Origin: an uncultured delta proteobacterium | Lineage (GTDB): Bacteria > Desulfobacterota > Desulfuromonadia > Desulfuromonadales > BM103 | DNA length: 64,000 nt | Assembly (NCBI GenBank): GCA_963715335.1 | Contig: CAVQRZ010000026.1 | Location: forward strand, 1-64,000 | Direction of reading: 5' to 3' | Shown: one piece after another, positions 860-35,553 of the stretch | Layout of the letters: every line of letters starts with the position of its first letter | Numbering within the stretch: the first letter of the stretch is position 1 | Translations under genes and position numbers: made by a program | Notes under the pieces: model-generated | Told to the model about the DNA's origin: nothing | The model's input: the letters and a program-made list of their open reading frames with translations, nothing else | Databases searched by the model: none

Positions 860-967
860 CGAAACCCGAAACGCGGGACGCGGGACGCGAATCAAAGCAA
901 AGAAGGTTTCTTTTTTTTTTGTTTTAAAATAGCTACTTCGCGTTCCTCGTCCCGCGTACTCGTCCCG
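860..967 (+). repeat. Tandem-heptamer inverted-arm element (CGGGACG / CGTCCCG)
   Basis: Left cgaaacc cgaaacg cgggacg cgggacg cgaa (860-891); right ttcg cgttcct cgtcccg cgtact cgtcccg (937-967). Confidence 0.85.
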
Positions 968-973
968 AATACC

Positions 974-1345
974 ATGACCGACGATTTCTCCTATAAAGTA
1001 ATCAAGTTAATCGAACAGGATCCCGAGATCTCCCAACGGGAATTGTCCCGAGAGCTTGGCGTGAGCCTGGGCAAGGTCAACTATTGTCTGCGGGCATTGA
1101 TCGACAAGGGTTGGGTCAAGGCACGCAACTTCCGCAACAGCTCCAACAAGCTTGCTTATCGCTACATCCTCACTCCCAACGGTTTACAGCAGAAAACTGT
1201 TGTGGCGACGAACTTCCTCAAGCGCAAACTCGCTGAGTATGAAAGTCTGCAGCAGGAGATCGAGCTTTTACGTCGCGATGTGGATGGGATGGTGAAGGGC
1301 AGTTACGCGGAACGCGGGACGCAGGACGGGAAGATCAATCTTTAA
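974..1345 (+). CDS. EPS-associated MarR-family transcriptional regulator
   Basis: ISQRELSRELGVSLGKVNYCLRALIDKGWVKARNF...YRYILTPNG; start moved from 827 to ATG 974 because the upstream part is ops plus repeat. Confidence 0.88.
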   Translation: MTDDFSYKVIKLIEQDPEISQRELSRELGVSLGKVNYCLRALIDKGWVKARNFRNSSNKLAYRYILTPNGLQQKTVVATNFLKRKLAEYESLQQEIELLRRDVDGMVKGSYAERGTQDGKINL

Positions 1346-1433
1346 CCAGTGAAAAGTTAAACGTAAAACGTGAAAAGTCACAGTATCTTGTGCCTTTATC
1401 TTTTTGCCTTTCACGTTTTACTTTTCACTTTTT
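1301..1433 (+). repeat. Heptamer arm in marR 3' end plus GTGAAAA/TTTTCAC inverted-arm element
   Basis: agttacg cggaacg cgggacg caggacg (1301-1328); gtgaaaa gttaaac gtaaaac gtgaaaa (1349-1376) versus ctttcac gttttac ttttcac (1408-1428). Confidence 0.8.
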
Positions 1434-1457
1434 CCACCCTAACGAGTCATTACTCCT

Positions 1458-2412
1458 ATGAAAAAAGCACTTATCTGCGGCATTTCCGGCCAGGACGGCG
1501 CATACCTCTCAAAGCTTCTCCTTGATAAAGGGTACGAAGTCTGGGGGACATCGCGGGATGCACAGCTCTCCGCTTTTGCCAATCTGAAAAGGCTTGGGAT
1601 CCATGACCAGGTGCAGTTGGTTTCCATGAGTCTGAATGATTTCCGCAGCACCCTGCAGGTACTTAAACAGGTGCAACCGGACGAGATTTACAATCTGGCG
1701 GGGCAAAGTTCGGTGGGGCTCTCCTTTGAACAGCCGGTGGAGACTCTCGAGAGCATCAGTGTCGGTTCCCTGAACCTGCTTGAGGCGATCCGTTTCCTCG
1801 AGTTGCCCGTACGGCTCTACAATGCCGGATCCGGAGAATGTTTCGGCAATACCAATGGCGTCGCTGCTGACGAGAACACCCCGTTCCGTCCGCGTAGCCC
1901 CTACGCCGTTGCCAAGGCTGCAGCATTCTGGGAGGTCGCCAACTACAGGGAAGCATACGGTCTCCACGCCTGCTCCGGGATTCTTTTCAATCATGAGTCT
2001 CCGTTGCGCCCAGAGCGCTTTGTTACCAGCAAGATCATTGCCGCAGCTTGTCGGATTGCCAACGGCAGCGGTGAAACCCTGGCCTTGGGTAATATTGACG
2101 TTGAGCGTGACTGGGGTTGGGCTCCTGAATATGTAGATGCCATGTGGCGGATGTTGCAGCAGGATGAGCCGGATGATTTTGTTATTGCGACCGGTGAGAC
2201 GCATTCCCTGAAAGAATTTGTTGCCGCAGCGTTTGAAGATGTTGGGTTGAATTGGCAGGACCATGTTTCTGTTGACCCGTCTCTCTATCGCCCCTCCGAT
2301 ATCATGACGATCAGTGCGAACCCTGCGAAAGCTAGCGTCTGTGCTTGGTTGGGAGGCACAGAAGAAGATGGGGGATGTGGTCAGAGAAATGATCAATGCC
2401 ATGGATCAATAA
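1458..2412 (+). CDS. GDP-mannose 4,6-dehydratase-family SDR (frameshift near 2335)
   Basis: GISGQDG, YNLAGQSSV, YAVAK, LFNHESPLR, RDWG; C-terminal LGWEAQ..DVVREM lies in +1 frame ending at 2412. Confidence 0.8.
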
Positions 2413-2482
2413 ACTGACCTAGTCTGTTGAGAGTTTTTATGATTAACCAATCACAGATCACTAATCACGAGTCACCTCATTT

Positions 2483-3380: not shown

Positions 3381-4646
3381 ATGTGTAAGACCAATAATCA
3401 AAGTCGAAAATCTCTCCAAAAAATATACTCTTGGGCATGTGCACACAGACTTGCTTAGTGAACGATTGGGTCGTTTTTTCCAGAGAGGAGGGGGTGTATC
3501 AAGCAAGGAGGCGCGCCAGGAGTTTTGGGCGTTGAAGGACATCAATTTTGAGGTGCAGCAAGGTGATGTTGTCGGCATTATCGGCAGGAATGGGGCAGGT
3601 AAGTCGACATTGTTGAAGATACTCTCTAGAATCACTTCTCCCACAGAAGGGCAGATTGAGATGTATGGTCGTGTCGCGAGTTTGCTTGAGGTTGGAACGG
3701 GATTCCATCCAGAGCTGACCGGGAGGGAAAATATATTTCTTAATGGCGCCATCTTGGGAATGAGTAAGTCAGAGGTGCGCAGAAAAGTTTGATGAGATTG
3801 TAGCTTTTGCGGAGGTTGAAAAATTTATTGATACCCCGGTAAAACGGTATTCGTCAGGAATGTATGTTCGCTTGGCTTTTTCCGTTGCTGCACACCTGGA
3901 GCCTGAGATCCTCTTGGTGGATGAAGTTTTAGCTGTCGGTGATGCTGCTTTTCAAAAGAAGTGCTTAGGTAAGATGGAGGATGTTGCACAGGCCGGTCGG
4001 ACGGTGTTTTTTGTCAGCCATAACATGGCAAGCATCAAAAAACTGTGTTCCAAGGTGATCTTTTTGAAGGATGGTCGGTTTATTTCGGAAGGCATCGCGA
4101 ATGATGTTGTCGGGCAATATCTGAATGAGAACTTTGCCAATGTTTCTGGAACGGTCCTCCCAGACGATATGCACCGCGTGAACTCAGCTTTTCAGATCAG
4201 GTATGTTGAATTTATAAATTCAATTGGTCAAGAGGTCTCCGCCTTTGAGTATGGTGAGGAGATAACAATTCGCCTTGTTGTGAAAGTCAGTGAGCCCGTT
4301 AGAGATGTGAAGGTTGGCGTGGGGTTGGTCGCGGAAGGAATTCGTATTTTTACCTTACACACTCCCTCAATCGAATCAATTAATCAATCAGAAGCCTTTT
4401 CCTGTGACTTGTCGTATTCCGAAAGATGTCCTTTTGCCAAGTTTTCATACGGTGCAACTTGGCGCACACGTTGCTGGGACTGGGCGCGGTCTCGACTGGG
4501 TACCTGATGCCGCTGTATTCCAGGTTATGGACGTTACGACCCGTAACGACAAAGCCATTGACGAAAAAGAATTGGGCCTTGTTCGAATCGTTCCTGAATG
4601 GGAATGGTTGGAACGGATTGAGAATAGAAAGGTTGATAGCCAGTAA
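3381..4646 (+). CDS. wzt: Polysaccharide ABC transporter ATPase with C-terminal Wzt_C-like domain (frameshifts near 3390, 3785, 4400)
   Basis: GRNGAGKST, YSSGMYVRLAF, ILLVDEVLAVGD, VSH across ORF fragments 3439-3792, 3860-4507, 4314-4646. Confidence 0.88.
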
Positions 4647-5658
4647 TGGAAAAAGTTTTTGCAGTTATTACGACAATACAAAAGCCGACGATTTCGGTAG
4701 AGAAATTGTTGAGCTTCCTTGCACCTCACAACATTCAACTGATTGTTGCTGGTGATCGTAAAGGCCCTGACAGCTTCGAAGGGGGACAACGTCAATTTCC
4801 TTTCAATCGATCAGCAGGCAAAGTCAGGTTTCAGCTTGCAACGCTCCTTCCGGAAAATCACTATGTACGAAAGAACCTTGGATATTTAAATGCTATTGCG
4901 CAAGTCGCAACATGTATTTATGAAACGGATGACGACAATGCACCGAATGAGAATTGGAATTTACGTGACTTACAGACGAATGCCAGGAAGGTTGTTCAGG
5001 ATGGCGGATAAATGTCTACAGGTATTTTACAAAAGATAAAATTTGGCCGCGAGGTTTTCCCTAGATGGATGGGAAAATCTTTTGTTGGCGGCGGCAGAAT
5101 TGGCAACGGAGGAATCAGATGTTATCGCTCCAATACAACAAGGTCTAGCCAATAACTCACCCGATGTAGATGCTATTTGGAGATTAGTTTTAGACAGGAA
5201 GTTCGATTTTGATAACGGTCCGAGTGTTTATCTCGATAAAGGGGCTTGGTGTCCATTCAACAGTCAAAGTACCTGGTGGTGGCCCGAAAGCTTATCCGTT
5301 GCTATATCTGCCCAGTTATTGCTCCTTCCGCATGACGGATATATGGCGTAGCTTCGTTGCCCAGCGTTGTCTTTTTGGGAACTTGACAAGGGGATCGTTT
5401 TCCATGCGCCGGAAGTTGTGCAGGATCGTAATAAACACGATCTGATAAGTGTAATTTTAATGGTGTAGATATACGGTTATAAAAATAATCGTTGACTGGT
5501 GGAATTTATTGAAGGTCTATCGCTTACGTCGGGACTGATGCGGTTTACACTAATTTATTGAAATGCTACGAAGCTTTAGTCGAAAAAGACTTTTTCCCAG
5601 CTAACGAGTTAAATCTGCGTTCAACTTATGGCTGGAGGACATAGAAAGAATTAGCTGA
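4646..5658 (+). CDS. STELLO/DUF288-like putative glycosyltransferase (multiple frameshifts)
   Basis: VITTI, GDRKGP, RKNLGYL, YETDDDN, QQGLANNSPDVDAIWRL, PFNSQST, FRMTDIWRS in consecutive fragments. Confidence 0.7.
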
Positions 5659-5756
5659 AGCGTACCGAGGAAAGCAAAGTTTTTAGAGAATTGCCTTTTC
5701 GGTAATTTTACGATCCTTTAGCTTTTTACAATCCCACCACACCAATACACTAATCT

Positions 5757-6646
5757 ATGAAGTCCTTATCAAATTTTCCACTCGTGTCCATTATCATCCC
5801 CAGCTATAACCAAGGACGATTCATTCGTAAAACGATAGAATCAGTTCTTACTCAGGACTACCGACCTATAGAGATCATCATTATTGACGGTGCTTCAACT
5901 GATGAAACAATTGATTGCTGCACGAGTTTGACGACATCCCTGAATTGACATGGATATCTGAACCAGACAACGGAGTGGTCGAAGCGGTCAATAAAGGTTT
6001 TGCGCGTGCCAAAGGTAAGGTAGGCGCGATACAGAGCTCTGATGATTACTATCTCCCCGGAGCGGTTAGTACGGGTGTTGAAGCCCTGATGAGGGATGCT
6101 TCTCTTGGTTTTGTCTTTGGAGACATTGTGAACGTTGATATACATGGTACCGAGCTGACGCGGACCAACCTGCAGCCGTTTACTCTCGAGGCGGTTCTCT
6201 CCCTGCAAACATGGATACCCCAACCGTCCACATTTTTTCGCTTAGGCTTGGCAAACAAACTCGGTGGTTGGCGAGAAGAGGTCCCCTTTGCTGCCGACAC
6301 GGATTTGTGGTTACGCATGGCTCTTGTGTCATCTGCCAGGAAGCTCGATAGACTCTTAGCCTGTAGGACGATGCATGAAGATCAACGTGACAATCAGGGG
6401 GAGAAGATTGTCCGCGACTTTAGCCAGATGATAGATGACCTCGGCATTGAATCAGAACTTGACTCTGCAGCAGAGGCTGGCAAGCTACTTTTGGCCAATC
6501 GATATTTGTCTAGTGAGGGTTACTGGGTATGCCACCGTCGGCTAAAAAGAGCAATTAATATTTATCCTCCACTCAGGAAGCGCGTACCATTTTCTGCCCT
6601 TGTCCCTGGTTGGTATCCTCTGTATGGGTGGATGGTGAAACACTAA
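5757..6646 (+). CDS. GT2 glycosyltransferase (frameshift near 5918)
   Basis: [36 protein letters not shown]. Confidence 0.8.
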
Positions 6647-6671
6647 AAATCCGTGGTGCAGGCACTCGACA

Positions 6672-7696
6672 GTGAGCGAGAAGAAATCATATACCTTTAA
6701 GCAGTATGTTGGTGCGCTTCTGTGCGACCTGCCTTATTATCTGGCGACTTTTCTGCAGAGCAACGGCTGGGTTTCAGCAAGAAATCGGAATGACCGGCTC
6801 GAATGGGATAGCAATGGAGTCGCGGTTAAGCTTGTCGATGATGGAGCAGTGATCTACATGCTTGTTTGTGCACGTTTTCCCCGACCTCGGTCTGGTACCT
6901 CCTGCAAAAAGCATTTCAATGCTGGCCGATTGCTGGAAAAACAGACGTCGGTTCGACTGATAATCCTGCCATTTCTTTCATCCATTCCTTTTCGCGGTCC
7001 TGAACGGCTACCTCTACTCAGAGCAGTAATCGAGAGTATTCACTCCCAGTTGGATGCGGACGTTGAGTGCCTGATCATAGAGCAGTCACCGAGACGGGAA
7101 CTGAATACATCCCCACGGCGCACATTACCTTCATTTACCACATTCTTGCGATGATCGATGGCGTAAAAGTTGGGCAAATAATGTCGGTGTCCGTAATGCC
7201 AAGTCAGATGTGATTTGTCTTTCACGATGCTGACATTCTGGTCCCATCTGCGTATGCACGGGAGGTGCTAAACAAGATTGCAGAAGGTTACGATGTTGTA
7301 CACCCACAACGTTTTTTATTTTGTCTGAATCAAGAAGCAACACAGAATTATTTGTCTGATCAAGGGTGGCAGGATATTGCTCCTGAGCGTGTTAGACAAA
7401 ACTGGCAAGGTGGAACTTTGGCAATAAGGAAAGAGTCTTTTAACCAACTTCGGGGGCTACGATGAAAGCTTTGTCGACTGGGGTGGAGAGGACAATGAAT
7501 TCTATGATCGTTACTGACGTTGAACGGCTGGCGGTATGGCTATCTGCCTTTTATACATCTGTGGCACGAACCTCAAAAGACGAAGGCCGACGATACCAGA
7601 AAACAGAATCTTGCTAGGTTAAGACGCAAGCTCTCGATCCCTTCTGAACAAAGGATTAATCAATTATTGGCGATGAAGGAGAAGAAAAGTTGGTAG
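6672..7696 (+). CDS. Glycosyltransferase with galactosyltransferase-like C-terminus (multiple frameshifts)
   Basis: IPFRG, IIEQS, FHDADI, GYDESFVDWGGEDNEF, HLWH motifs across frames. Confidence 0.6.
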
Positions 7697-8694
7697 AAGG
7701 TCTCGTTTCGACAATCATCCCGGTATATAACCGCCCACAAATGCTGCTGCAGTCGGTGGAGTCAGTGCTTGCACAAAACCTATAGACCGATAGAAATTAT
7801 CATCTGTCAGATGATCGCTCGACTGACGAGACGCCACAGGTTGCTCAGAAGCTCTGTTCCAAGCATCCAGAGATCGTTTACATCGGCAATGAGAACGAGG
7901 GACCGGGCCCTGCTCGAGAGGCAGGACGGTTAGTTGCAAAAGGCGAATTTATACAGTACCTGGATAGTGATGACCTTTTGTTGCCACAGAAATTCGCGAT
8001 CCAGGTTGAGTCACTTAAAACGCACCCGGAATGCGGCGTTTCTTATGGTAAAACCAGACTTGTCGATATGAGTGGTAAAGTTCTGGCTGATCCTTTCAAG
8101 TGGACAGCTAAAAAGGCCTCGTCACTCTTCCCGCAGTTGTTGGTCGATCGCTGGTGGTGTACTCATACACCTCTTTACAGAAGGTCTGTTTGTGATGTCA
8201 TCGGGCCATGGACCGATCTGCGATATTCGCAGGATTGGGAATATGATGGCCGGGTTGGCGCACTGGGAACTAAGCTGGTCTGGTGTGACGAAACAGTCAG
8301 TGAGCACCGAACCCATGAGTGTTTTCGGCAGACCGGGAATGGGACATGGTTAGTACCGCATGACCGGGTGCGGTTTTTTAGCCTGCTTTACCAGCATGCA
8401 CGTACAGCAGGGATAGAGATTGATGCTCCGGAGATGAAACATTTCGCACGCTGGGTTTTTCTCAATGTTCGACAATGTGGAAAACTGGACGATGGCCAGG
8501 CCGCCCGGCAATTGTTCGAGTTGGCAGTGCGTGCCAATAATGGTGCCTCTCTAGATATGCATGGTTACGCTCTGTTAGCCTGTCTGTTGGGATGGGAGAG
8601 GTCCGCGCACATGACCGAATGGTTACACGGTTGTTTGAAAAAGACACCAGGGAAACTCACACAAAAGCAATCTTGGATGGGATCCGATGATTAG
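7690..8694 (+). CDS. GT2 glycosyltransferase (frameshifts near 7790-7820)
   Basis: TTG start after AAGGAG, VSTIIPVYNR, GPGPARE, QYLDSDD, QDWEYD. Confidence 0.72.
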
Positions 8695-9613
8695 TGTGCC
8701 TGAAGTCTCCGTGGTCATGAGTGTCTACAACGGCGCTTCACATTTACGGGCGTCGATCGATAGCATTCTACAGCAGGACGGCGTCGATTTCGAGTTCATC
8801 ATTGTAGATGACGGCTCGACCGATGAGTCGCCGTCGATTCTCGACGAATACGCGAACAGAGACGCTCGTATCCGCCTTTTTCATCAAGAGAACCGGGGGT
8901 TGACTAGGGCACTGATACGTGGATGTGCCGAAGCGAGTGGGGAATTTATTGCGCGCCAAGATGTGGGTGATATCTCATTGCCTGGACGGCTGGAGCGACA
9001 GGTGGCTCTTGTTCGCAAAAACCCGCTGGCGGTGCTGATCTCCTGTGCGACCAGAATGACTGGCCCTCGAGGTGAATTTCTTGAAATTGTTGTCCAGGAT
9101 CCATCCCAGGCAACGGATAGTCTGCAAACACTTGACATTAAAAAACTTCGTGGGCCCTCTCATCACGGCGCGACGCTATTTCGTCGTGCCGACTACCAAT
9201 CTGTGGGTGGCTATCGTCCGCAGTTCCGCATGGCTCAGGATATTGACTTGTGGGTGCGCCTGTGTGAGAGAGGAGCTCATCTCCCCAGCGCTGATGTTGA
9301 TTACGAGGCGGAATATAGTCTTGTGGGGATCTCTTCGGGTCGTTGGCAGCAACAGCTCAAGATTGGAGCTCTGATTTTAGAGAGTGCTCGCCTGCGGCGC
9401 CTCGGTCAAACCGATACAGAGGTGTTAACCAATGCGGAAAAAATATCCTCGCTGAAACACTCATCGGATTCAAAAGAACGTGCTGCAGCAGCCTATTTCA
9501 TAGGATGTTGTCTTGCCAAAAACAAGCGCGGACAAGGCGCTGCCTATTTCAAACGGGCACTGCATGACAATCCCTTGCATCTAAAAGCCCTGCTGAGTCT
9601 TCTTCTGAAATAA
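8687..9613 (+). CDS. GT2 glycosyltransferase
   Basis: VSVVMSVYNG, IVDDGSTD, ENRGL, AQDIDLWVR. Confidence 0.88.
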   Translation: MISVPEVSVVMSVYNGASHLRASIDSILQQDGVDFEFIIVDDGSTDESPSILDEYANRDARIRLFHQENRGLTRALIRGCAEASGEFIARQDVGDISLPGRLERQVALVRKNPLAVLISCATRMTGPRGEFLEIVVQDPSQATDSLQTLDIKKLRGPSHHGATLFRRADYQSVGGYRPQFRMAQDIDLWVRLCERGAHLPSADVDYEAEYSLVGISSGRWQQQLKIGALILESARLRRLGQTDTEVLTNAEKISSLKHSSDSKERAAAAYFIGCCLAKNKRGQGAAYFKRALHDNPLHLKALLSLLLK

Positions 9614-11929: not shown

Positions 11930-13169
11930 ATGAAACTCGGCATTCTCACAACCCACCCGATCCAATACCAGGTTCCCTGGTTTAGGGCTTTGGCTTCTTT
12001 GCCAGATATCGACCTGACTGTTTTTTTCTGCATGTTTCCCGATTCGAAACAACAGGGAGAGGGCTTTGGGGTCGCGTTTGAATGGGATGTGCCTCTGCTT
12101 GATGGTTACCACTACCGGGTTCTGGAAAATATCTCGCCGCAGCCTGCCGTAGGCTCTTTCAAAGGATGCGATACACCGGAGATCGACAGGATTGTACGAG
12201 ACGAAGGCTTTGATGCCTTCATCGTCAATGGCTGGGTTGTTAAAAGCTGTCTGCAACTGTTGTGGGCATGCAACAAAAACAAAGTTCCTTGTGTCGTGCG
12301 CGGTGAATCAAATAATTTGCGCCCGAGAGTCTGGTGGAAGAAGACTCCTCCATAGGCTGCTACTTACTCGTTACAGTGCTTTTCTTTATATCGGTGAAGG
12401 TAATCGACGTTTTTACCTTGAGAATGGTGTTGCGGAAGAGAAATTGTTCTTTGCCCCCTATTGCATTGAAAATGAACGATTTGCAAAGATGTCTGAAGAA
12501 CTCAAATTGCAGCGCGAGTCTATTCGTGAAGCGTGGGGTATCCCACGAGATGCAGTGACATTTCTATTCTGCGGCAAGTTTCAGAATAAAAAGCGCCCTA
12601 TGGATTGTTTGAGGGCTTTGCAATTGATCAAAGCCCGGGACGCGGGATGCGGGACGCGGGACGCGAAAACCCCAAAAGATTTAAGTCCTCCAGCCACTGG
12701 CCACCAGCCAGCAGCCGAACCATTGCATCTCTTAATGGTTGGCACAGGGGAGTTACTCGATGAATGCAAATCTTTTGCGAATGAACACAACCTGCCAGTG
12801 ACCTTTGCAGGGTTTTTAAATCAATCAGAAATCCCAAAGGCTTATGTGGCGTCTGATTGTCAGGTTTTGCCTTCGGACAATGGAGAAACCTGGGGATTGG
12901 TGGTGAATGAAGGGATGGCATGTGGCCTGTCCGCAATAGTTAGTGACCAAGTCGGATGCCACCTTAATCTCATTAAGGATGGAGAAACGGGGTGGGTATA
13001 CCCTTGTGGTGATGTCGTTGCCCTGTCCGATCGCATGAGAATGGTTGCTGATAAAGAGGTCCTGGAACGTTCGGGAGTAAATGCCCGTGGTCTTGTCTCA
13101 GGACACAATTACGATGTCGTTGTGAATGGAACGTTGTCAGCGCTTGATTATGTCCTAGGTCGTCACTAA
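11930..13169 (+). CDS. GT4 glycosyltransferase (frameshift near 12345; in-frame repeat insert 12636-12717)
   Basis: THPIQYQ, FCGKF..KKRP, GFLNQSEIP, ETWGLVVNEGMACG. Confidence 0.85.
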
Positions 13170-18436: not shown

Positions 18437-19246
18437 AACCAAAGATTTCAATAATCACCGCCACCCATAATTCTCAAGGCGTCATCACCTCATGTCTGGA
18501 CAGCCTGAAACAACAGGCTGTTCCTTTTGAGCACATTGTTATTGACGGGGCATCAACCGACTCAACCCTTCAGGTCGTCAAAGTGCAATCCCCTGATAGC
18601 CACATCCTGTCTGAGCCGGACAAAGGTCTTTACGATGCCTTAAACAAGGGCATCGGAATGGCGACAGGGGAGGTTGTCGGGGTTTTGCATGCAGATGATT
18701 TTTATGCGGCAACGAATGTTCTTCAACTTGTGTCGGACGTGTTTCAAGACCCTTCGGTGGATGCTTGTTATGGCGACTTACTCTATGTTGCCGAGAAACG
18801 CGGGACGCGGGACGCGGGACGCGGAAATCACAACAATTCACATTTCACATCTCACGATTCGCTGTTCCACGTTAAGCGCTATTGGCGTAGTGGTGACTAC
18901 AACCCCCGCAAGTTCTATTGGGGCTGGATGCCTCCGCACCCGACGTTTTTTGTTCGCAAATCAGTGTATGAGAAGTACGGCCTGTTTAATCTGAATATGG
19001 GCACCGCTGCTGATTATGAGCTGATGTTGCGCTTCCTGGTGAAGCATGGCATTACGTGTAAGTATCATCCCTGAAGTTATGGTCTGCATGCGTACAGGCG
19101 GGGTGAGTAATGCGAATCTGGGTAACCGGTTGCGGGCGAACCGGATGGATCGTGAAGCGTGGCGGATGAACGGTTTGCAGCCATACCTGTTTACGACCTG
19201 GTTGAAACCGATCAGGAAGATTCCACAGTATTTCTTACGGCCGTAA
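18433..19246 (+). CDS. GT2 glycosyltransferase, WcaE-like (frameshift near 19065; in-frame repeat insert 18794-18861)
   Basis: IDGASTD, SEPDKGLYDALNKG, LHADD, GWMPPHPTFF, ADYELMLR, MRTGGVSN. Confidence 0.85.
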
Positions 19247-22197: not shown

Positions 22198-22201
22198 TGT
22201 C

Positions 22202-22444
22202 CGGGACGAGGTCCGAGGAACGTGGTACGCGGAAAATCAAAGGCTATAATACGTTTGTGCAGATAGTTTGTTTTGTTCTTTTCATCAATTCAACAGTTCA
22301 ACAAATAAATGCTTCGACAGAAGTTCCTACCCAGCCGTTTCCTGATGCGTTAAATTCATCGATATGTTATAAGAACCAATTGTTTTTAATCACAGCTTTA
22401 GAGCTTTAAGGCTCTAAAGCAGTAAAGCCTTGCAGCGTTAAAGC
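22202..22444 (+). repeat. Composite junction: heptamer arm plus two octamer arrays
   Basis: cgggacg aggtccg aggaacg tggtacg cggaaaa; aattcaac agttcaac aaataaat gcttcgac (22287-22318); cagcttta gagcttta aggctcta aagcagta aagccttg cagcgtta (22393-22440). Confidence 0.75.
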
Positions 22445-22453
22445 TGGACTTGA

Positions 22454-23182: not shown

Positions 23183-23191
23183 AAACATTGA

Positions 23192-23353
23192 TCGCACAGA
23201 GACGCAGAGCCCACAGAGATAATAGAATCGCCACAAATGGGTTTTAAAAACTAGCAATCAAATATTTTCTCAGTGTTCTCTGAGCCTCGAGCGAGTAAAA
23301 CGAACGGGCGTGATAAGAATTCGCTTTTGACTTTTAACGTTTCACCCTTTACG
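23192..23353 (+). repeat. Nonamer-type inverted-arm element with 26-nt motif, followed by an orphan heptamer arm
   Basis: tcgcacagagacgcagagcccacagaga (23192-23219) versus tctcagtgttctctgagcctc..ggcgtga (23268-23313); cttttga cttttaa cgtttca cccttta (23324-23351). Confidence 0.75.
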
Positions 23354-24281: not shown

Positions 24282-24395
24282 AGTGGCGTGTAGCGCGTGG
24301 CGCGTGGCGAGAAAGTCAAAACATTGGCTCATGACCCGCAGATGATTGTTCGTCTTTTTAGATTTTAAATTAGATTTTTCGCGCCCCGCGCCACC
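24282..24395 (+). repeat. Tandem-heptamer inverted-arm element (CGTGGCG / CGCCACG)
   Basis: agtggcg tgtagcg cgtggcg cgtggcg agaaa versus ttttcg cgccccg cgccacc. Confidence 0.8.
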
Positions 24396-24413: not shown

Positions 24414-26421
24414 ATGGCCCACCAGTCAAATTTGATTGCTGAAGATATAACTGCTTACCTGAAAGCCCAGGAAGAAAAATCGATGCTGCGCTTCATCACC
24501 TGTGGCAGTGTCGATGACGGCAAGAGTACGCTGATCGGCCGCCTGCTGTGGGATTCGAAGTTGGTGTTCGAGGACCACCTGGCAGCGCTGGCGGTCGACA
24601 GTAAAAAGGTCGGCACCCAGGGCGATGATCTCGATTATGCGCTGCTGCTCGACGGCCTGCAGGCCGAGCGTGAGCAGGGGATCACCATAGATGTCGCCTA
24701 CCGCTTTTTTTCCACTGAAAAGCGCAAGTTCATCGTTGCCGACACCCCGGGGCACGAGCAGTACACCCGCAACATGGTCACCGGGGCCTCGACCGCCGAT
24801 CTGGCGGTGATCCTGATTGATGCCCGCAAGGGCGTCCTGACCCAGACCCGCCGTCACAGCTACCTGGCCTCGCTGGTCGGCATCCGCAAGGTGTTGGTGG
24901 CGATCAACAAGATGGACCTGGTCGGTTACTCGGCTGACACCTTTACTGAAATCGAACAAAGTTATCGAGCCTTTGCCACCCTGCTCGGTTTCGAAGAGAT
25001 CACCTGTATCCCGATTTCCGCACTCCGGGGCGATAACATCATCAATCCGAGCGCACAGACCGACTGGTATCAGGGCCCGACCCTGATGACCTGCCTGGAA
25101 ACCGTTCAGGTGGACAATGCCGCTCTGAGCCTGCCGTTTCGTATGCCGGTACAGTGGGTGAATCGTCCCGATCTCGATTTCCGCGGTTTCTGCGGCACAG
25201 CTCGCCTCTGGCCGGGTCTCGGCGGGCGATTCGGTTGCCGTTGCCGGTTCGGGCCAGAAGAGCCGGGTGGCACGGATTGTCACCATGGACGGGGACCTCG
25301 AGGAGGCGGTGGCCGGTCAGGCTGTCACCCTGACTCTTGAGGATGAGATTGATATCAGCCGGGGCGACATGCTCTGTGACCCTTTGAACCGCCCGGCCCA
25401 TGCTGATCAACTGGAAGCCCGCGTGGTCTGGATGCACGATGACGTCCTGTTGCCGGGCCGCAGTTACCTGCTGAAAACCGGAGCGACGACCGTACCGGCG
25501 CAGATCAGCGACCTGAAGTACAAGGTCAACGTCAATACCCTGGAGCATATGGCCGGGAAAACCCTGGGGTTGAACGAAATCGGCGTGTGCAACCTCTCAC
25601 TGGGCAAGGCGCTCTCCTTTGATCCGTACCAGGAGAACCGCAGCACCGGCAACTTTATCCTGATCGATCGCGTGACCAACGCCACGGTCGGTGCTGGTAT
25701 GATCGATTTTGCCCTGCGCCGAGCCACAAATATTCATTGGCAGGCTCTCGACGTTGACAAGAGCAACCGCGCATCGATGATGAACCAGAAACCTGCAGTG
25801 CTCTGGTTTACCGGCCTTTCCGGGGCGGGCAAGTCGACGATTGCCAACCTGGTGGAGAAAAAGCTCCATTCCCTCGGCAAACATACATACCTGCTCGATG
25901 GTGACAATGTGCGTCACGGCCTGAACCGTGACCTCGGTTTTACTGATGCCGATCGTGTTGAAAATATCCGGCGTGTGGCAGAGACCGCCAAGCTGTTCGT
26001 CGATGCCGGATTGATGGTTTTGGTCTCTTTCATTTCTCCTTTCCGCAGTGAAAGGAGTATGGCGCGGGAGATGCTGGAGGAAGGTGAATTCTACGAAGTT
26101 TATGTGAACACCCCCCTGGAAGTCTGCGAAGAGCGTGACCCGAAAGGGCTCTACAAGAAGGCTCGTGCCGGCCAATTGCTGAATTTCACCGGGATCGATT
26201 CCGCATACGAAGAGCCTGAAAATCCGGAAATCATCGTCAATACGGCGGCCTCCCAACCGGAGGATTTGGCCGAAGAGATCGTCCGGACAATCCTTGGCGA
26301 TGATTTCGCTTGCGAGATTCAGGATGGGACGGAGACGATTGACATTGGAAGCGCGAGCTGCGAATCGCGAAAAGACAAACTGATTGTCACGCAGCGTCGC
26401 AAAGAACGTAGAGATAGATAA
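24414..26421 (+). CDS. cysNC: Bifunctional sulfate adenylyltransferase subunit 1 / APS kinase (frameshift near 25201)
   Basis: [48 protein letters not shown]; removing one base at about 25201 joins the two ORFs. Confidence 0.92.
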
Positions 26422-26530
26422 AAGCAGCATTAATGATTTGCTATTGAGTGCTCAGCGTCTCGAATGAGCGAAACGAACGGGTGAGGGTTAAAAGGATGAA
26501 TCCAGATTTTCACATATAGATTTTACGGAT
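26349..26530 (+). repeat. Nested heptamer and nonamer elements overlapping the cysNC 3' end
   Basis: aagcgcg agctgcg aatcgcg aaaa; tcacgcagcgtcgcaaagaacgtagaga; gtgctcagcgtctcgaatgagcgaaacgaacgggtgag. Confidence 0.65.
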
Positions 26531-27311: not shown

Positions 27312-27400
27312 TGAAATGCGAGGTGCGAGGCGGGAAGCGCGAAAACCTTACACCTCGGCTCAAATTTTGATTTTTTCGCGTTTCTCACTTCGCGCTTCAA
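27312..27400 (+). repeat. Tandem-heptamer inverted-arm element (CGAGGCG / CGCTTCG)
   Basis: tgaaatg cgaggtg cgaggcg ggaagcg cgaaaa versus ttttcg cgtttct cacttcg cgcttca. Confidence 0.85.
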
Positions 27401-27417: not shown

Positions 27418-28545
27418 ATGGCAAAAGTTGCACTTATAACCGGCATCACCGGCCAGGACGGAGCCTACCTCGCCGAATTCCTGCTGAAGAAAGGGTACAT
27501 CGTGCACGGCATCAAGCGCCGGGCCTCTCTGTTTAATACCGATCGTATCGATCATCTTTACCAGGATCCCCACGTTGAACATCGCAATTTTATCCTGCAT
27601 TACGGGGACCTGACCGATGCGACCAATCTGATCCGGATTATCCAGGAGGTACAGCCGGACGAGATCTACAACCTGGCGGCGATGTCGCATGTGGCGGTCT
27701 CCTTTGACACTCCAGAGTATACGGCAAATGCCGACGGCCTTGGCACGCTTCGCATCCTTGAAGCGATACGCATCCTCGGTATGGAAAAGAAAACCCGCTT
27801 CTACCAGGCATCGACATCGGAGCTTTTCGGTAAGGTCCAGGAGACCCCGCAGACCGAGACCACACCATTCTACCCGCGCTCGCCTTATGGTGTCGCCAAA
27901 CTCTACGGCTACTGGATTGTTGTCAACTACCGCGAATCTTATGGTATGTACGCCTGCAACGGGATCCTGTTCAACCACGAATCACCGATCCGTGGTGAAA
28001 CTTTCGTCACCCGCAAGATCACTCGTGCCGTGGCGCGCATGGCACTGGGCCTGCAGGAGTGTCTTTACCTCGGCAACCTCTCAGCACTGCGTGACTGGGG
28101 GCACGCCAAGGATTATATCGAAGCGCAGTGGCTGATGCTGCAACAGGAGGAACCCGAAGATTTTGTGATCGCCACCGGCAAACAGTACTCGGTGCGGCAG
28201 ATGGTGGAGACTGCCGCCAAGGAACTCGGCATCTATCTGCGCTGGGAAGGCGAAGGCCAGGAGGAAATCGGCTTTGTTGACAGTGTTGAAGAAGGTCGCG
28301 GTACCAAGGATGCTGCGCTGGTTCCAGGGCAGGCGATCGTACGCATTGATCCGCGTTATTTTCGCCCGGCAGAGGTCGAGACATTGCTCGGTGACTCGAC
28401 CAAGGCGAAGCAGAAGCTTGGTTGGGAGCCTAAGGTGACATTTCAAAAGCTTGTCAGCGAGATGGTCAGGGTCGATCTCGAAAAGGCCAAATGTGACGAG
28501 ATGGTCAAGGAGCACGGTTACCAGATATTTGATTATCATGAATGA
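27418..28545 (+). CDS. gmd: GDP-mannose 4,6-dehydratase
   Basis: [38 protein letters not shown]. Confidence 0.96.
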
Positions 28546-28547
28546 AT

Positions 28548-28680
28548 CGTGGCGCGTGGCGAGTGGCGCGTAGCGAGAAAAATCTTTGATTGAATTAATT
28601 ATGAAAATTACTCGATTGGCATATCATATGATTAACGAGTTTTTTAAACTCTTTAGCCGCGCCACGCGCCACGCGCCACG
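28548..28680 (+). repeat. Tandem-heptamer inverted-arm element (CGTGGCG / CGCCACG)
   Basis: cgtggcg cgtggcg agtggcg cgtagcg agaaaa versus cgcgccacgcgccacgcgccacg. Confidence 0.88.
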
Positions 28681-28691
28681 GTTTTATCAGA

Positions 28692-29808: not shown

Positions 29809-31236
29809 ATGATCGTCCCCGTAATACTCTCTGGCGGTGCCGGAACCCGCTTGTGGCCATTGTCACGTGAACTTTATCCGAAGCAGTTGTTGCCGCTGGT
29901 TGGTGATCGAACCATGTTACAGGATACGGCTTTGCGCCTGAATGGACTGGCCAACCGGAATGCACCATTGGTCGTCTGCAACGAGGCTCACCGTTTCATG
30001 GTTGCTGAGCAGCTGCGTCAGGTCGGCCAGACAGCTGGAGCAGTAATCCTGGAGCCGGTCGGTCGCAACACGGCCCCGGCGGTTGCGGTTGCGGCTTTAT
30101 GTGCAACGGAAAACGGCGATGATCCGATCCTGCTGGTGTTGCCTGCAGATCATGTGGTACGAGATGCAAAAGAGCTCTGTAAGACAGTCAACAACGGAAT
30201 CGAAACCGCGACAGACGGGGCTCTTTTGACGTTCGGGATTGTGCCGACGTCACCGGAGACGGGGTACGGTTATATAAAGCGTGGCGCGAAGTGCGAAGTG
30301 CGAAGGATAAAATCTGATCCGACAATCTATGATGTTCAGAAATTTGTCGAAAAACCAGACTTAGCGACTGCAGAAGAGTATCTGAAGTCCGGAGATTATT
30401 ACTGGAACAGCGGCATGTTCATGTTCAGGGCCTCGGCATATCTTGCTGAGCTTGAAAATCACGCTCCTGAGATACTCTCTGCTTCTCGCAAGGCCTGGCA
30501 GGGGCGGGTGGTTGACCTTGATTTCACCCGTCTCGATGGCGAAGCGTTTGCGGCCTGTCCGTCTGATTCGATCGATTATGCAGTGATGGAAAAGACAGCC
30601 CGGGCGATGGTTGTCCCGCTCGAAGCCGGCTGGAGCGATGTTGGTTCCTGGGCTGCGCTCTGGGAAGTTGGTGAGATGGATACCGGCGGGAATGTTACGT
30701 TCGGTGATGTGATTGATGTGGACTGCAATAACAGCTATTTGCACGGTGGCTCGAGGCTGGTGGCCGGAGTCGGATTACAGGGCATCGTGGTTGTTGAGAC
30801 CGCTGATGCCGTTCTGGTCGCAGCCAAGGACCGGGTGCAGGATGTCAAACGGGTTGTTGAACAGCTGAGAAGCACTGAACGTGAGGAACACTTGCTGCAT
30901 AGGCGGGTCAACCGGCCATGGGGGGCTTATGAAGGTCTCGATTCCGGTGACGGTTTTCTGGTCAAACGAATCACTGTGAATCCTGGGGCAAGTCTCTCAC
31001 TTCAGCGCCATAAACATCGTGCCGAACACTGGATCGTGGTGCGTGGCATAGCCGACGTCACCTGTGAAAATGTTGTCCAGACCCTCGAAGCAAATCAGTC
31101 CTTCTATATTCCGATTGGCAACAAACATCGCCTGACCAACCCCGGCGACACGATCCTTGAGATCATTGAAGTGCAGACAGGCGAACTTCTGTCTGAGGAC
31201 GATATTGAACGTTTTGACGATGTGTATGGGCGTTAA
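29809..31236 (+). CDS. manC: Mannose-1-phosphate guanylyltransferase / mannose-6-phosphate isomerase
   Basis: GGAGTRLWPLSR..PKQ, EP.GRNTAPA, SIDYAVME, WSDVGSW, RPWG, HRAEHW; ATG 29809 after GAGGT. Confidence 0.95.
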   Translation: MIVPVILSGGAGTRLWPLSRELYPKQLLPLVGDRTMLQDTALRLNGLANRNAPLVVCNEAHRFMVAEQLRQVGQTAGAVILEPVGRNTAPAVAVAALCATENGDDPILLVLPADHVVRDAKELCKTVNNGIETATDGALLTFGIVPTSPETGYGYIKRGAKCEVRRIKSDPTIYDVQKFVEKPDLATAEEYLKSGDYYWNSGMFMFRASAYLAELENHAPEILSASRKAWQGRVVDLDFTRLDGEAFAACPSDSIDYAVMEKTARAMVVPLEAGWSDVGSWAALWEVGEMDTGGNVTFGDVIDVDCNNSYLHGGSRLVAGVGLQGIVVVETADAVLVAAKDRVQDVKRVVEQLRSTEREEHLLHRRVNRPWGAYEGLDSGDGFLVKRITVNPGASLSLQRHKHRAEHWIVVRGIADVTCENVVQTLEANQSFYIPIGNKHRLTNPGDTILEIIEVQTGELLSEDDIERFDDVYGR

Positions 31237-31240
31237 ATGA

Positions 31241-31358
31241 CGAAGCGCGAAGTGCGAAAAGACTATCCAATACGTAACTAGATGGAAAATATAATGAGTT
31301 CATTTCCGGGCTTTTATTTTAGGTTTATCACGCCTCGCGCCTCGCGATTCGCGCTTCG
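31241..31358 (+). repeat. Tandem-heptamer inverted-arm element (CGAAGCG / CGCTTCG)
   Basis: cgaagcg cgaagtg cgaaaa versus cgcctcg cgcctcg cgattcg cgcttcg. Confidence 0.85.
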
Positions 31359-31366: not shown

Positions 31367-32719
31367 ATGAACATCTCCTGTTTCAAAGCATATGACATCC
31401 GCGGCCGGATTCCTGATCAGTTAAACGATGATATTGCTTACCGTGTCGGCCGTGCCTATGCGCAGTTTTTGCAACCGGACACCGTCGTGGTCGGACAGGA
31501 TGTGCGGCCGACAAGCCCGTCGTTGACGCAGGCTTTGATAAAAGGTCTGACAGAGGGTGGGGCGGATGTTCTGGATATCGGCCTGTGCGGCACCGAAGAG
31601 GTCTATTTTGCCACCTCGCATACCGGAGCAGACGGCGGTATCATGGTTACGGCGAGCCACAATCCGTCTGATTACAATGGTATGAAACTGGTGCGTGAAG
31701 GAAGCCGGCCGATCAGTGGCGATAGCGGTCTTGACGCAATCCGTCAGATCGCGGAAGAGGGGGGCTTCAATGTCCATGGCCGGCTCGGCTCGGTCTCTCC
31801 GTATGAGCACCGCATCGCATATATCCGCCATTTGCTCAGCTATATCGACACGTCCACACTGAGGCCATTCAAGATCGTGGTCAATGCCGGAAACGGTTGT
31901 GCCGGACCGGTTCTTGACCTGCTTGAAAATCAGCTGCCGCTGGAGATCACCAAAATATGCCACAAACCGGATGGCACTTTCCCGAATGGTATCCCCAACC
32001 CATTGCTTCCGGAGAACCGGGGGATCACAAGGGACGCTGTCCTGGCCAATGGCGCCGGGCTCGGTATCGCCTGGGACGGTGATTTTGATCGCTGTTTTTT
32101 CTTCGACGAGCGGGGCGAGTTCATCGAGGGATATTATATCGTTGGTTTGTTGGCCGATGCGTTTCTGGCCAAGGAGCCGGATGCGAGAATCATTCATGAC
32201 CCGCGGCTGACCTGGAACACCGTTGATATAATCAACAAGGCTGGAGGGCAGGCCGTGATGAGCAAGACCGGCCATGCCTTCATCAAGGAACGCATGCGAG
32301 CCGAGGATGCGGTCTACGGCGGCGAAATGAGCGCACACCACTATTTTCGTGACTTTGCCTACTGCGACAGCGGTATGATCCCGTGGTTGCTGGTCGTAGA
32401 AATGATGTGTCGTGAACGTAAGCTGTTGTCGGAGCTAGTCGGCGAGCGGATGGCCAGGTTCCCGGCCAGCGGCGAAATCAACAGGGTTCTGGCGGATCCA
32501 AAAGCGGTGATTGCGGCTGTGGAAACAAAATACTCTGTTGATGCGTTAAGTGTTGACCGGACTGATGGTCTTTCCATTGAGTTTACCGATTGGCGTTTCA
32601 ACCTGCGCATGTCAAACACCGAACCGGTGGTGCGGTTGAATGTGGAATCCCGTGGAGACAAAGGGCTCATGGAAGAAAAGACACAGGAGTTATTGAATTT
32701 CCTGAAGAAAATTCAATAA
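31367..32719 (+). CDS. manB: Phosphomannomutase
   Basis: [31 protein letters not shown]. Confidence 0.95.
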
Positions 32720-32722
32720 CTC

Positions 32723-32875
32723 CGTGACGCGGTACGAGTGACGCGAAAGTCAAAGTCTATTGATCTAGGAACCACAGATAAACAGGATGGACACAGTTTA
32801 AGGATTAGCCTGTGAGGGTTTATGGAATCTATGAGTGAAATGAATCGCGTTCCGCATTCCGCGTCCCGCGTCCCG
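32723..32875 (+). repeat. Heptamer inverted-arm element with internal nonamer array
   Basis: cgtgacg cggtacg agtgacg cgaaa; accacagataaacaggatggacacag (32771-32796); cgttccg cattccg cgtcccg cgtcccg. Confidence 0.8.
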
Positions 32876-33886
32876 GATTCTAAAAGAATCCTGGTAACCG
32901 GTGCAGCAGGTTTCATCGGCTTTCATCTCTGCCTGCGGCTGCTGCAGCGCGGCGATCAGGTGGTTGGTCTCGACAACCTGAGCGACTACTATGATGTATC
33001 ACTTAAGGAAAACCGCCTTAAGAAACTGAATAATATTGATAATTTCTCATTTATAAAGCTTGATATTTCTGTTCGTGCGGACATGGAAAAGCTCTTTGCT
33101 GAGCATCAATTTGATGTTGTGGTCAACCTTGCGGCTCAGGCCGGCGTCCGTTATTCCCTGACCAACCCGCATGCCTACGTCGATGCCAACATCGTCGGCT
33201 TTATGAACATTCTCGAAGGCTGTCGGCAACAGCGGATCGCCCACCTTGTCTATGCTTCTTCCTCATCGGTCTACGGTGCAAACACCAGCATGCCGTTTTC
33301 GGTGCATGATAATATCGATCACCCGGTTTCGCTCTATGCCGCGAGTAAAAAGGCCAATGAGTTGATGGCGCATACCTATGCCCATCTGTATGGGCTGCCC
33401 TGTACCGGCCTGCGTTTCTTTACTGTATACGGACCCTGGGGGCGTCCTGATATGGCGCTGTTCCTGTTTGCCAGGGCAATCCTGGCCGGTGAACCGATCA
33501 ATGTTTTTAACCACGGCCGCATGCGCCGCGATTTTACTTATATTGATGACATTGTCGAGGGTGTTGTGCGGGTTATTGACAAACCGGCGCAATCCAATCC
33601 TGACTGGACGGGTGACCGGCCAGATCCCGGGACCAGTGCGGCGCCGTATCGCGTGTATAATATCGGTAACAACAACCCGGTCGAGCTGATGGACCTGATC
33701 GAAACCCTCGAAAAGGCCCTGGGTAAGGTCGCAGAAAAGAATTTCATGTCGATTCAGCCTGGGGATGTTCCTGCGACCTGGGCCAATGTCGATGCCCTTA
33801 GTGATGATGTCGGTTTCCGGCCGGATACACCGATCGAAGTCGGCGTGCAAAAATTTGTCGACTGGTACCTTGGGTATTATGCGTAA
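32822..33886 (+). CDS. NAD-dependent epimerase, UDP-glucuronate 4-epimerase type
   Basis: [41 protein letters not shown]; exact start (32822/32831/32840) uncertain. Confidence 0.9.
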
Positions 33887-33888
33887 AT

Positions 33889-34020
33889 CGAGGCGCGAAG
33901 TGCGAGGCTGGAACAAGCAAAAAAAATTGTCACGCAGAGACGCTGAACACGCAGAGCTAAAAATAACCATCTAATATCAGCTTTAATTCTCGCGATTCGC
34001 ACCTCGCATCTCGCGCTTCA
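33889..34020 (+). repeat. Heptamer inverted-arm element with internal nonamer arm
   Basis: cgaggcg cgaagtg cgaggct; tcacgcagagacgctgaacacgcagag (33930-33956); cgattcg cacctcg catctcg cgcttca. Confidence 0.82.
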
Positions 34021-34029
34021 AGGATTCTT

Positions 34030-35340
34030 ATGAGTTCAGTCGTTGCCATAGTCGGTCGGCCAAACGTTGGGAAATCGACGTTGTTCAACCGTATTCTGGG
34101 CAGGCGTATGGCAATTGTCGAGGATATCCCTGGTGTGACACGCGACCGGAATTATGCCGAGGTATCCCGTTACGCAAAACGCTTTACCCTGATCGATACA
34201 GGCGGTTTTGAACCGGCCAGTAACGATCGTCTTCTGTCTCAAATGCGTGAACAGTCCCAACTGGCAATTGAGGAGGCGGATATCATCCTCTTTCTCATGG
34301 ATGGCCGGGAAGGACTGACCCCGGCCGATGAAGAAGTAGCCGGCATGCTTCGCCAGGTGGACAAACCTGTTTTGTTCGTGGTCAACAAAGTCGATGGGCC
34401 GAACCAGGAAGCAGCGCTCGGCGAGTTTTACGCCCTCGGAGTCAATGACCTCTATCCGGTCTCTGCCGAACATCGCCTTGGTGTCGGTACGCTGATCGAT
34501 GAGGTGCTGGAGCTTTTGCCGGAACAGGACGAAGGCCAGGAGAGCCTCACCGAGACCCGTCTGTCGATTATCGGCCGACCGAACGTCGGCAAGTCCTCGC
34601 TGGTCAACCGCATGCTCGGTTACGAGCGGGTCGTCGCCAATCCGACGGCCGGGACGACCCGAGACAGTGTCGATACACCGTTCATCTACAATGAAAAACG
34701 CTATGTCCTGATCGATACCGCCGGTATCCGCCGCAAGGGCAGGGTGTCGCAAAAGTTGGAAAAGTACTCAGTAATCCACGCCCTCAAGGCTTTGGATCGT
34801 ACTCACGTTGCTCTGGTGGTGATTGACGCCGAAGAAGGGATTACCGACCAGGACCTGACGATAGCCGGTTATGCTCATGAACGGGGCCGGGCGGTCATCC
34901 TGATCGTCAACAAATGGGATCTGGTCAAAAAAGACAACTCTACGATGGGTGATTACATCAAGGACGTGCGTGACGCATTCAAGTTTCTTCCTGACAGCCC
35001 GATTCATTTTGTATCGGCACTAACCGGCCAGCGAATCAACAAGATCATGGTAGATGTCGAGATGGTCAGCGACGAGTTCAATCGCAAGGTTTCGACCGCG
35101 GAACTCAACCGGGTCCTCAAGGATGCCGAAATCAACCATCCGCCACCGATGTTCCGTGGTAGACGCCTGAAGCTATTCTATGCCACCCAGACGGCGGTCC
35201 GTCCGCCAACCTTTATCATTTTCGTCAACAAATCCGAGGGGATTCATTTTTCGTATGAACGCTATCTGATGAATTGCCTGCGTCAGGCGTTCGGTTTTAT
35301 CGCCTGCCCGATAAGATTGAAATTCTCGGACCGGAAATGA
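34030..35340 (+). CDS. der: Ribosome biogenesis GTPase Der (EngA)
   Basis: Two GRPNVGKS P-loops, DTGG and DTAG, NKVD and NKWD, KH-like tail. Confidence 0.97.
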
Positions 35341-35345
35341 GTAAA

Positions 35346-35553
35346 TAGGGTGCGAGACGGGAAGTGGGAAGCGCGAAAAAGCCAACCACTTTATCTAGCC
35401 AAAGATCAAAACCGACACAGGTGATTTAAAAGATGGTTGAACACTTGAATTTTGGCTATGCCTGTTGATAAAGAGTGAATCGGTTAAACAGCTCAACAAT
35501 TCAATACCCTCCAGGTCTTTCTCGTGCGACGCAACCCGCGTTTCGCGTCCCCC
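35346..35553 (+). repeat. Heptamer inverted-arm element enclosing an octamer pair
   Basis: tagggtg cgagacg ggaagtg ggaagcg cgaaaaa; ggttgaac acttgaat ... ggttaaac agctcaac aattcaat; tttctcg tgcgacg caacccg cgtttcg cgtcccc. Confidence 0.75.

Follow-up and report, generated by a model that had tools for sequence, protein, structure and literature searches.

What are the paired hairpin elements that stand at the gene junctions of a polysaccharide operon in an uncultured delta proteobacterium, and how did they come to be there? The operon lies in the first 64 kb of contig C26, which belongs to a 3.3-Mb assembly of 43 contigs; this whole stretch of 64,000 nucleotides is referred to as the window. 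A sequence-only reading of the window had described 9 paired elements, each composed of a purine-rich left arm of short tandem units, an AT-rich spacer and a complementary right arm, as well as orphan arms and arms translated in frame inside genes, and all of these are present. In the present genome and its relatives, such arms also enclose genes. The resulting cassette carries either a gene for a four-helix-bundle protein, similar to Avd and to the protein of 23S rRNA intervening sequences (IVS), within inverted 7-base arrays, or a gene for a GxxExxY protein of the PD-(D/E)XK fold within 8-10-base arrays. Filled, empty, swapped, nested and absent states are found at the same junctions. We consider it probable (roughly 0.6) that the elements of the window are gene-less remnants of this small, exchangeable IVS-like cassette, the mobilising step being the part that we infer.

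Filled, empty and swapped states of the same junctions

Three of the 9 junctions of the window are occupied in relatives by a four-helix or a GxxExxY gene lying between such arms. This directly supports what the sequence-only reading had suggested, namely that similar arrays flank TIGR02436 and GxxExxY genes, with the elements of the window as possible empty versions. The cysD-cysN junction holds a four-helix gene in G024 and G039 and an element of arm family D in G003, G004, G006 and G017 (G000 denotes the present genome, and the other G-numbers denote genomes of relatives). At gmd-fcl, G039 and G011 have a GxxExxY gene, G040 has a split four-helix gene, and G006, G017 and G019 are without an element. 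At manC-manB, the four-helix gene of G040 runs in the sense of the operon and that of G028 antisense to it, while G025 has a GxxExxY gene and G019 no element. The element at cysQ-gmd has other types in its place in G002 and G017, and the uge-engA junction measures 9 nt or less in G015, G017 and G021. Tight junctions are found at some sites of G006, G015, G017, G019 and G021, relatives sharing about 75% DNA identity, too distant for insertion boundaries to be read. In a second polysaccharide locus, one junction carries a four-helix cassette with 7-base arms in G000 and G003 and a GxxExxY cassette with 9-base arms in G004.

Within the genus, the arm family differs at 4 of the 10 compared junctions (cysD-cysN, cysQ-gmd, gmd-fcl and manC-manB), with gene order constant. 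From cysC to engA, the order is unchanged in all relatives assembled in one piece there and it is the contents of the junctions that vary; the earlier suggestion of a system that inserts and shuffles the glycan genes themselves thus found no evidence. Elements of the 8-10-base type are, as read by eye, nested in the loops of 7-base pairs. Sliding identity comparisons of G000, G002 and G004 revealed mosaic identity beside the swapped junctions and no recombination tract clearly associated with the swaps. In G024, the empty gmd-fcl junction equals the left end of the G011 cassette plus its last ~40 bases, which is consistent with a loss of ~600 nt between same-direction (direct-repeat) arms of a G011-type cassette.

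Further arrangements were observed at individual junctions. L062 (G028:C1:2078000-2097999) contains 2 manC-manB pairs, with a four-helix cassette antisense to the operon in one and, by coordinates, another in sense in the other. In the gmd-fcl region of G039 (L017:2620-3630), 4 near-identical hairpin units of ~140 nt stand in tandem before the GxxExxY gene; this is a local amplification of the empty element. The manB-uge junctions of G017 and G021 (L010 and L067) carry unrelated hairpin-ended insertions of ~580 nt.

The four-helix protein (PF05635/TIGR02436) matches a solved pentamer, Xcc0516 (2GSC), and its likeness to Avd of diversity-generating retroelements is stated in PMC10053308. The present genome contains 3 four-helix genes above the cut-off and 1 weak, frameshifted copy. 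All 3 intact genes lie between paired arms, the frameshifted fourth has a left arm, and the flanks of the 4 genes match 4 arm families (E, C, B and A). Among 61 genomes, TIGR02436 matches, some of them short and weak, occur in 39 and TIGR04256 matches in 37. Cargo loci were represented by the best match per genome, about 30 of the 100 four-helix and 80 GxxExxY matches listed. Inverted arms scoring at least 13 flank 28 of the 32 four-helix loci (the weak copy of the present genome, which has no tblastn hit, is left out), and 20 of these 32 loci are flanked by direct repeats; among 120 random genes, the counts are 2 and 6, respectively. Paired arms likewise accompany 24 of 29 GxxExxY loci (1 of 30 was dropped, having no hit). 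The arm period sorts with the cargo: all 24 GxxExxY cases have a period of 8-10, and of the 28 four-helix cases 25 have a period of 7. The genes found between the arms of filled forms belong to PF05635 or PF13366. In relatives, a glycan, sulfation or locus-regulator gene lies within 1.5 kb of 15/29 four-helix loci and 9/30 GxxExxY loci, compared with 12/222 background tiles; glycan loci are hot spots of empty and filled forms alike.

One four-helix cassette of the present genome, L021 (G000:C23:173350-174020), has its right arm translated as the N-terminus of guanylate kinase. The site, in a conserved run that we take to be yicC-gmk-rpoZ-spoT, is also filled in G001, G002 and G029.

Period, pairing and placement across the genome

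Repeats of 7 bases are in excess across bacterial genomes. The present genome contains 226 arrays of period 7, some exceeding 10 units, compared with 12-49 arrays for the control periods 4, 5, 8, 10, 11 and 13. An inverted partner lies downstream of 49/99 purine-rich arrays and upstream of 47/94 pyrimidine-rich ones (control, 8/678); a further 33 arrays belong to neither class. Neighbouring arrays stand in purine-first order in 37 cases and in the reverse order in 1. Of 99 elements paired automatically, a few of them chance matches, 92 begin with the purine-rich arm, whatever the gene direction. By flanking genes, these 99 elements divide into 46 on the minus strand, 34 on the plus strand, 10 convergent, 6 divergent and 3 otherwise, according to our own gene caller, which set one gene of the window on the wrong strand. 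The uniform polarity described earlier is therefore not a strand property: an inverted pair reads identically on both strands, and purine-first is an internal order, not one relative to transcription. Array density shows no link with low G+C across 86 bins (rho 0.02). An identical element with its flanks occurs at G000 C1:23668-23731 and C32:22560-22623, probably a duplicated or contaminating segment (assembly contamination is 6.87%), and is counted twice among the paired elements.

The sequence-only reading had held that period is conserved and sequence is not. Clustering, however, groups the arrays into about 6 main genome-wide families, with 55 (A), 40 (B), 32 (C), 22 (D), 17 (E), and 9 and 8 (F) members, each on 5-18 contigs, so that sequence is conserved too, at the level of the family. 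Its claim that left and right arms match within a junction holds at that level, neighbouring arms being of one family in 25 of 37 pairs (13% expected), but not beyond it: ranked against other family members, the own partner arm has a mean rank of 0.51 (n = 25; random, 0.5). Unit-for-unit co-maintenance of both arms was rejected, the own partner being strictly best in just 11/91 cases from a pool of 180 arms, a test biased by taking a maximum and less fair than the rank test.

These data bear on a local, neutral origin, in which slippage would produce the tandem units and template switching the mirror arm, with no cassette involved. Arrays of more than 10 units, the few cassettes with unit-for-unit mirror arms and the persistence of arrays in genomes without either cargo gene would suit such an origin. 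Template switching, however, predicts that the own partner is the best match, which is not seen, and nothing in a local origin explains families common to dozens of unlinked sites, the single period of 7, the 37:1 order or the coupling of cargo to period. This account is already under strain and is the least probable of those considered here.

Arrays lie within 2 kb of 24 glycan-gene places in 25 of 226 cases, with these places making up 2.3% of the genome (about 5-fold enrichment); when the locus of the window is omitted, the figures are 10 of 210 arrays and 1.3% of the genome. The places were found with the window's own proteins alone and form an incomplete set. The densest of the 86 bins is the first 35 kb of the window, followed by the second polysaccharide locus. 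Thus, the expected enrichment in glycan loci is present, but locus specificity is not: 201/226 arrays are located more than 2 kb from these 24 places, and a glycan-specific system was rejected on this count. Arrays occur genome-wide, and paired heptamer and octamer arrays have been published, which is part of what the sequence-only reading had named as evidence against itself (genome-wide arrays in random orientation, or a known family).

Elements start at a median of 6 nt after a stop codon and end at a median of 22 nt before a start codon (n = 73), and they are scarce between divergent genes (6/96 versus 17% of gaps, p 0.003). Both features fit targeting, tolerance or RNA function alike. Elements are also found inside genes. 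At L022 (G000:C25:188240-188410), a complete paired element lies in frame in a PHP-type phosphatase gene, adding ~55 residues, and in G004 this site of the gene is occupied by an element from a different family. A loop of ManC measures 17 residues in G019 and 22-35 residues in 10 other genomes, where it holds arm-like sequence of differing families.

An RNA function would have the elements as selected structures of the RfaH-driven transcript (RNase III-type cut sites, stabilising stems or bridges from stop codon to ribosome-binding site) that set relative expression. The placement suits it, as do the long stable stems and the precedent of Coxiella, in which RNase III cleaves a heptamer-bearing IVS stem (PMC4990558). 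Against dinucleotide shuffles, 7 of the 9 elements of the window fold with z < -2.5 on the sense strand; those at 31241-31358 and 32726-32875 (the latter trimmed to 150 nt) miss this threshold. The mismatches, scored with a strand-symmetric pairing score that treats G-U and A-C alike, speak otherwise. On the sense strand of 82 elements, 86 are G-U and 109 A-C, compared with 65:35 in 180 ordinary post-stop hairpins (Fisher p 0.0009); mismatches within one element are non-independent, and the per-element split is 25 to 35 (p 0.25). The empty elements thus show no sense G-U excess of the kind seen in the control hairpins, a point against their being tuned mRNA regulators. In addition, the partner arm is no nearer than other family members, lone arms and in-frame arms occur inside genes, and junction content is swapped or absent in relatives of the same gene order. 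The RNA-tuning alternative raised by the sequence-only reading is therefore unsupported genome-wide, and we judge it unlikely; any effect on mRNA would be a by-product and not the reason for the presence of the elements. Identity as intrinsic terminators was rejected, with 0 of 7 elements in 22-36 kb receiving a sense-strand terminator call and the genome-wide G-U bias being absent. On the minus strand, a 17-pair hairpin with a T tract (32686-32723) overlaps the end of manB and may terminate antisense transcription.

A proposed route of spread and the points against it

If the elements are remnants of cassettes, their history may have run as follows. A cassette would arrive directly after a stop codon or in a protein loop that tolerates insertions, leaving the downstream ribosome-binding site intact. 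Its gene would then be lost by recombination or slippage between same-direction copies of the arms, giving an empty hairpin, and the leftover arms would serve as the entry point of the next element, which would explain nesting, three-arm cassettes and wholesale swaps at fixed slots. Glycan operons would accumulate cassettes because these loci are often exchanged and are cassette hot spots. Copying and insertion form the weakest step. Our leading guess is that an event of the recombination type takes place in DNA at the arm arrays and is promoted by the cargo proteins, with GxxExxY as the cutter and the four-helix ring as the arm binder, a suggestion that we offer tentatively and at less than even odds. 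More doubtful still is a transposase-free mobile system in which 2 unrelated proteins would have their own arm codes (7-base for the four-helix ring, 8-10-base for the GxxExxY nuclease), each clade would recognise its own unit, and empty hairpins would be both offspring and landing pads.

Several observations weigh against the cassette origin. No mobilising activity was seen, and the four-helix protein has no known catalytic activity. No recent identical copies with target duplications and no fresh insertions were seen, the relatives with tight junctions being too distant to show boundaries. The present genome lacks a GxxExxY gene and holds 8-10-base remnants, and no four-helix gene with family D arms is present in this assembly. 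The clean filled/empty pair, at gmd-fcl, is of the GxxExxY and not of the 7-base type, and it leaves the direction, loss or gain, unfixed. Neither cargo gene was found above the cut-off in G015 (99% complete), which has 22 family C arm matches, nor was either found in G050 (87% complete) and G022 (94%), which have 39 and 12, respectively; these cross-relative counts cover family C alone of the 6 main families. Strict dependence of arrays on a resident cargo gene was rejected on the evidence of G015. Sampled array density is 25 in 400 kb from 4 genomes with a four-helix gene versus 6 in 345 kb from 4 without, a comparison rendered noisy by G015, the sample of which scored 0 despite its 22 matches.

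Loci with more similar proteins also tend to have more similar arms (Mantel rho 0.27, p 0.0005; 30 of the 34 loci), and one protein clade together with family F arms is common to loci from 3 families of the order; kin share both protein and arms, so that the covariation shows co-inheritance and not recognition. The few residues that follow a conserved glutamate-glycine in helix 2 do not vary among the proteins of one arm family but change from family to family; this segment is a candidate specificity loop, not separated from ancestry.

Finally, the window itself leans towards the RNA level: its 7 scored elements have 11 G-U and 4 A-C mismatches on the sense strand, 5 from one element, and 6 of 8 elements fold better on that strand. 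In filled cassettes, too, the cargo strand has more G-U than A-C mismatches (75:50, p 0.03). RNA pairing might matter in part of the cassette life cycle.

Related repeats and the features of the window

Paired arrays resembling those described here are known from Geobacter metallireducens as Gmet_I classes 1-4 and Gmet_H4 (Aklujkar 2009, PMC2700814). They share with the present elements 3 to 5 tandem 7-9-base units, opposite-strand pairs, a variable spacer, and intergenic and in-frame copies. They were interpreted as global-regulator binding sites, and the text consulted mentions no cargo gene, filled or empty states or family swaps. By the same hypothesis, the present elements would be paired DNA sites of a host nucleoid or regulatory protein, IHF/HU-like as proposed for G. 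metallireducens, and their strand-symmetric behaviour fits a DNA-level role. Yet at least 6 unrelated unit families replace each other at one slot, the elements are depleted between divergent genes, where promoter sites lie, and the arrays are coupled to 2 cargo genes; we regard host-protein sites as very improbable.

The heptamer repeats of Xanthomonas and Nostoc (Rehm 2015, PMC4692102) and of Beggiatoaceae (MacGregor 2015, PMC4679880) are also of period 7, mainly intergenic and scarce between divergent genes, with 70-75 convergent inverted pairs per genome in Xanthomonas (PMC4692102, in which the heptamer excess of bacteria is also cited). As in these published cases, tandem 7-base units in convergent inverted pairs are found genome-wide here and are largely intergenic. 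Those studies treat one unit each, seen as a quadruplex or translation signal, whereas several families and cargo genes are present here. Wholesale replacement of one 7-base repeat class by another, repeatedly and at a fixed site, has been described for the P6b stem of the Nostoc trnL intron (PMC4476775); that case concerns a single site in a structured RNA, and no cargo gene is mentioned in the text consulted.

The 23S IVS of Coxiella burnetii (Warrier 2016, PMC4990558) carries an S23p/PF05635 open reading frame (ORF) in the loop of a long stem with tandem heptamers on its 5' side. Filled forms of the present cassette likewise have a PF05635 ORF in the loop of a terminal stem, and the 9 elements of the window are empty. 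The Coxiella ORF can decay while the stem persists, resembling the empty elements here. In contrast, that IVS is located in rRNA and excised by RNase III, whereas the present elements lie between or within protein genes (9/9 in the window) and are mostly empty.

The layout of repetitive extragenic palindrome (REP) doublets, or REPINs, with their REP-associated tyrosine transposases (RAYT), is similar in its inverted doublets, diverse spacer, decaying singlets and rare associated gene, and REPIN copies are more numerous in genomes holding the gene, to which the present arrays may be likened (PMC8049555). The elements could accordingly be REPIN-like transposons or miniature inverted-repeat transposable elements (MITEs), non-autonomous and copied by a conventional host transposase acting in trans (of RAYT/IS200 or IS110 type), with the cargo genes as passengers. 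Two inverted arms with a diverse spacer and many dispersed extragenic copies are indeed found, the genome contains 2 Y1_Tnp genes, and in G. metallireducens 2 families of insertion sequences (IS) lie at a fixed distance from similar paired sites (PMC2700814). However, the period-7 arrays closest to the two Y1_Tnp genes are 17.8 and 23.2 kb away, no HUH transposase stands beside the arms, and the enclosed genes have other folds. The arms are tandem arrays with family-specific units instead of single palindromes, and if the cargo genes were passengers, no sorting by arm period would be expected. Terminal inverted repeats in common with a transposase-bearing IS, as MITEs have them, were not seen, the cargo being PF05635 or PF13366; an IS110 transposase was not found, and other IS families were not searched. 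Full-length likeness among copies is also missing, since for the whole element at 28540-28690 the matches elsewhere in the present genome are limited to arm-length stretches of 20-40 nt. We therefore consider this explanation quite unlikely.

A literature search, mostly of sources beyond subscription journals, found no published link of dispersed heptamer pairs to four-helix or GxxExxY cassettes, and the window has no Rfam match at gathering score. STRR repeats are known from cyanobacteria. Paired arrays and heptamers in one IVS stem are known; what is new is the life cycle of the cassette and the rule that links cargo to period.

The RfaH-headed operon occupies positions 176-33886, with engA and chemotaxis genes beyond. 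It comprises rfaH, an exopolysaccharide (EPS)-type marR gene (974-1345; TIGR04176 match), GDP-mannose dehydratase genes, wzm/wzt, glycosyltransferase genes, a sulfate-activation block, gmd, fcl, manC, manB and an epimerase gene (short names such as uge, ywqE and yicC are working labels, in part from Pfam matches). Many genes of the locus are split by frameshifts (3439-21960 and 24414-26421), among them wzt, several glycosyltransferase genes and cysN; cysN of G002 and the frameshifted C1 copy of the four-helix gene resemble each other, so that indel errors of the assembly are as likely as decay. The elements had been said to run through the whole locus, yet from ~1.5 to 23 kb there are just orphan or in-frame arms (Table 1). 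The region 35.6-64 kb is free of paired elements, as noted earlier: a sensitive scan gave 4 weak unpaired matches there (score 0.50-0.60) versus 25 arm-like ones in 1-35.6 kb. Four-helix genes of relatives carry the arm family of the element at 1349-1433, and the right arm of that at 32723-32875 is translated as the N-terminus of uge.

Table 1. Positions of the operon head, paired elements and stray arms in the window; z, fold z score (sense/antisense).
Feature	Position	Strand	Remarks
rfaH, operon head (context gene)	176..682	+	TIGR01955, 150.9 bits (cut-off 144.5)
ops-like site, directly before first element	839..849	+	seen in sequence by likeness to the ops consensus
Paired element, family D (22 arrays genome-wide)	860..967	.	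right arm ends 6 nt before marR start; z -5.7/-4.2
Orphan left arm, family D, translated in frame at marR end	1305..1328	+	
Paired element, family F (8 arrays)	1349..1433	.	z -6.2/-5.7
In-frame stretch in GT1 glycosyltransferase: family D left and family E right arm, non-complementary	12636..12716	+	
In-frame stretch in GT2 glycosyltransferase: family D left arm and right arm of other family	18798..18855	+	
Orphan left arm and two period-8 arrays, before cysC	22200..22445	.	
Worn 8-10-base-type pair and orphan family F right arm (23324-23345), cysC-cysD	23186..23345	.	pair type judged by eye against GxxExxY arms
Paired element, family C, cysD-cysN	24282..24395	.	z -3.5/-2.4
Remnant of 8-10-base-type pair, cysN-cysQ	26421..26510	.	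whole pair in G002
Paired element, family B (40 arrays), cysQ-gmd	27312..27400	.	z -5.2/-1.5
Paired element, family C (32 arrays), gmd-fcl	28548..28680	.	z -7.8/-7.1
Family B left arm in frame, variable loop of manC	30279..30308	+	
Paired element, family B, manC-manB	31241..31358	.	z -1.9/-2.3
Paired element, family D, manB-uge	32723..32875	.	loop holds nested 8-10-base-type arm; z -0.3/-2.1 (32726-32875)
Paired element, family B, uge-engA	33889..34020	.	nested 8-10-base-type arm; z -4.4/-3.2
Worn paired element 3' of engA	35346..35553	.	period-8-like inner pair; z -2.6 sense; lost in G001

For annotation, the locus carries a warning: arm-derived peptides inflate the ends and loops of proteins, and the hairpins are not to be taken as operon-specific regulators. 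The matched filled, empty, swapped and tight junctions, together with the cargo-period rule, allow assays with defined protein-arm pairs and mismatched controls. The locus touches long-open questions, namely the heptamer excess, the origin of rRNA IVS and the function of TIGR02436 and GxxExxY proteins. If the system of two arm codes proved true, it would explain the heptamer excess of bacteria, the ORF-bearing IVS of rRNA and 2 large protein families whose function is unknown.

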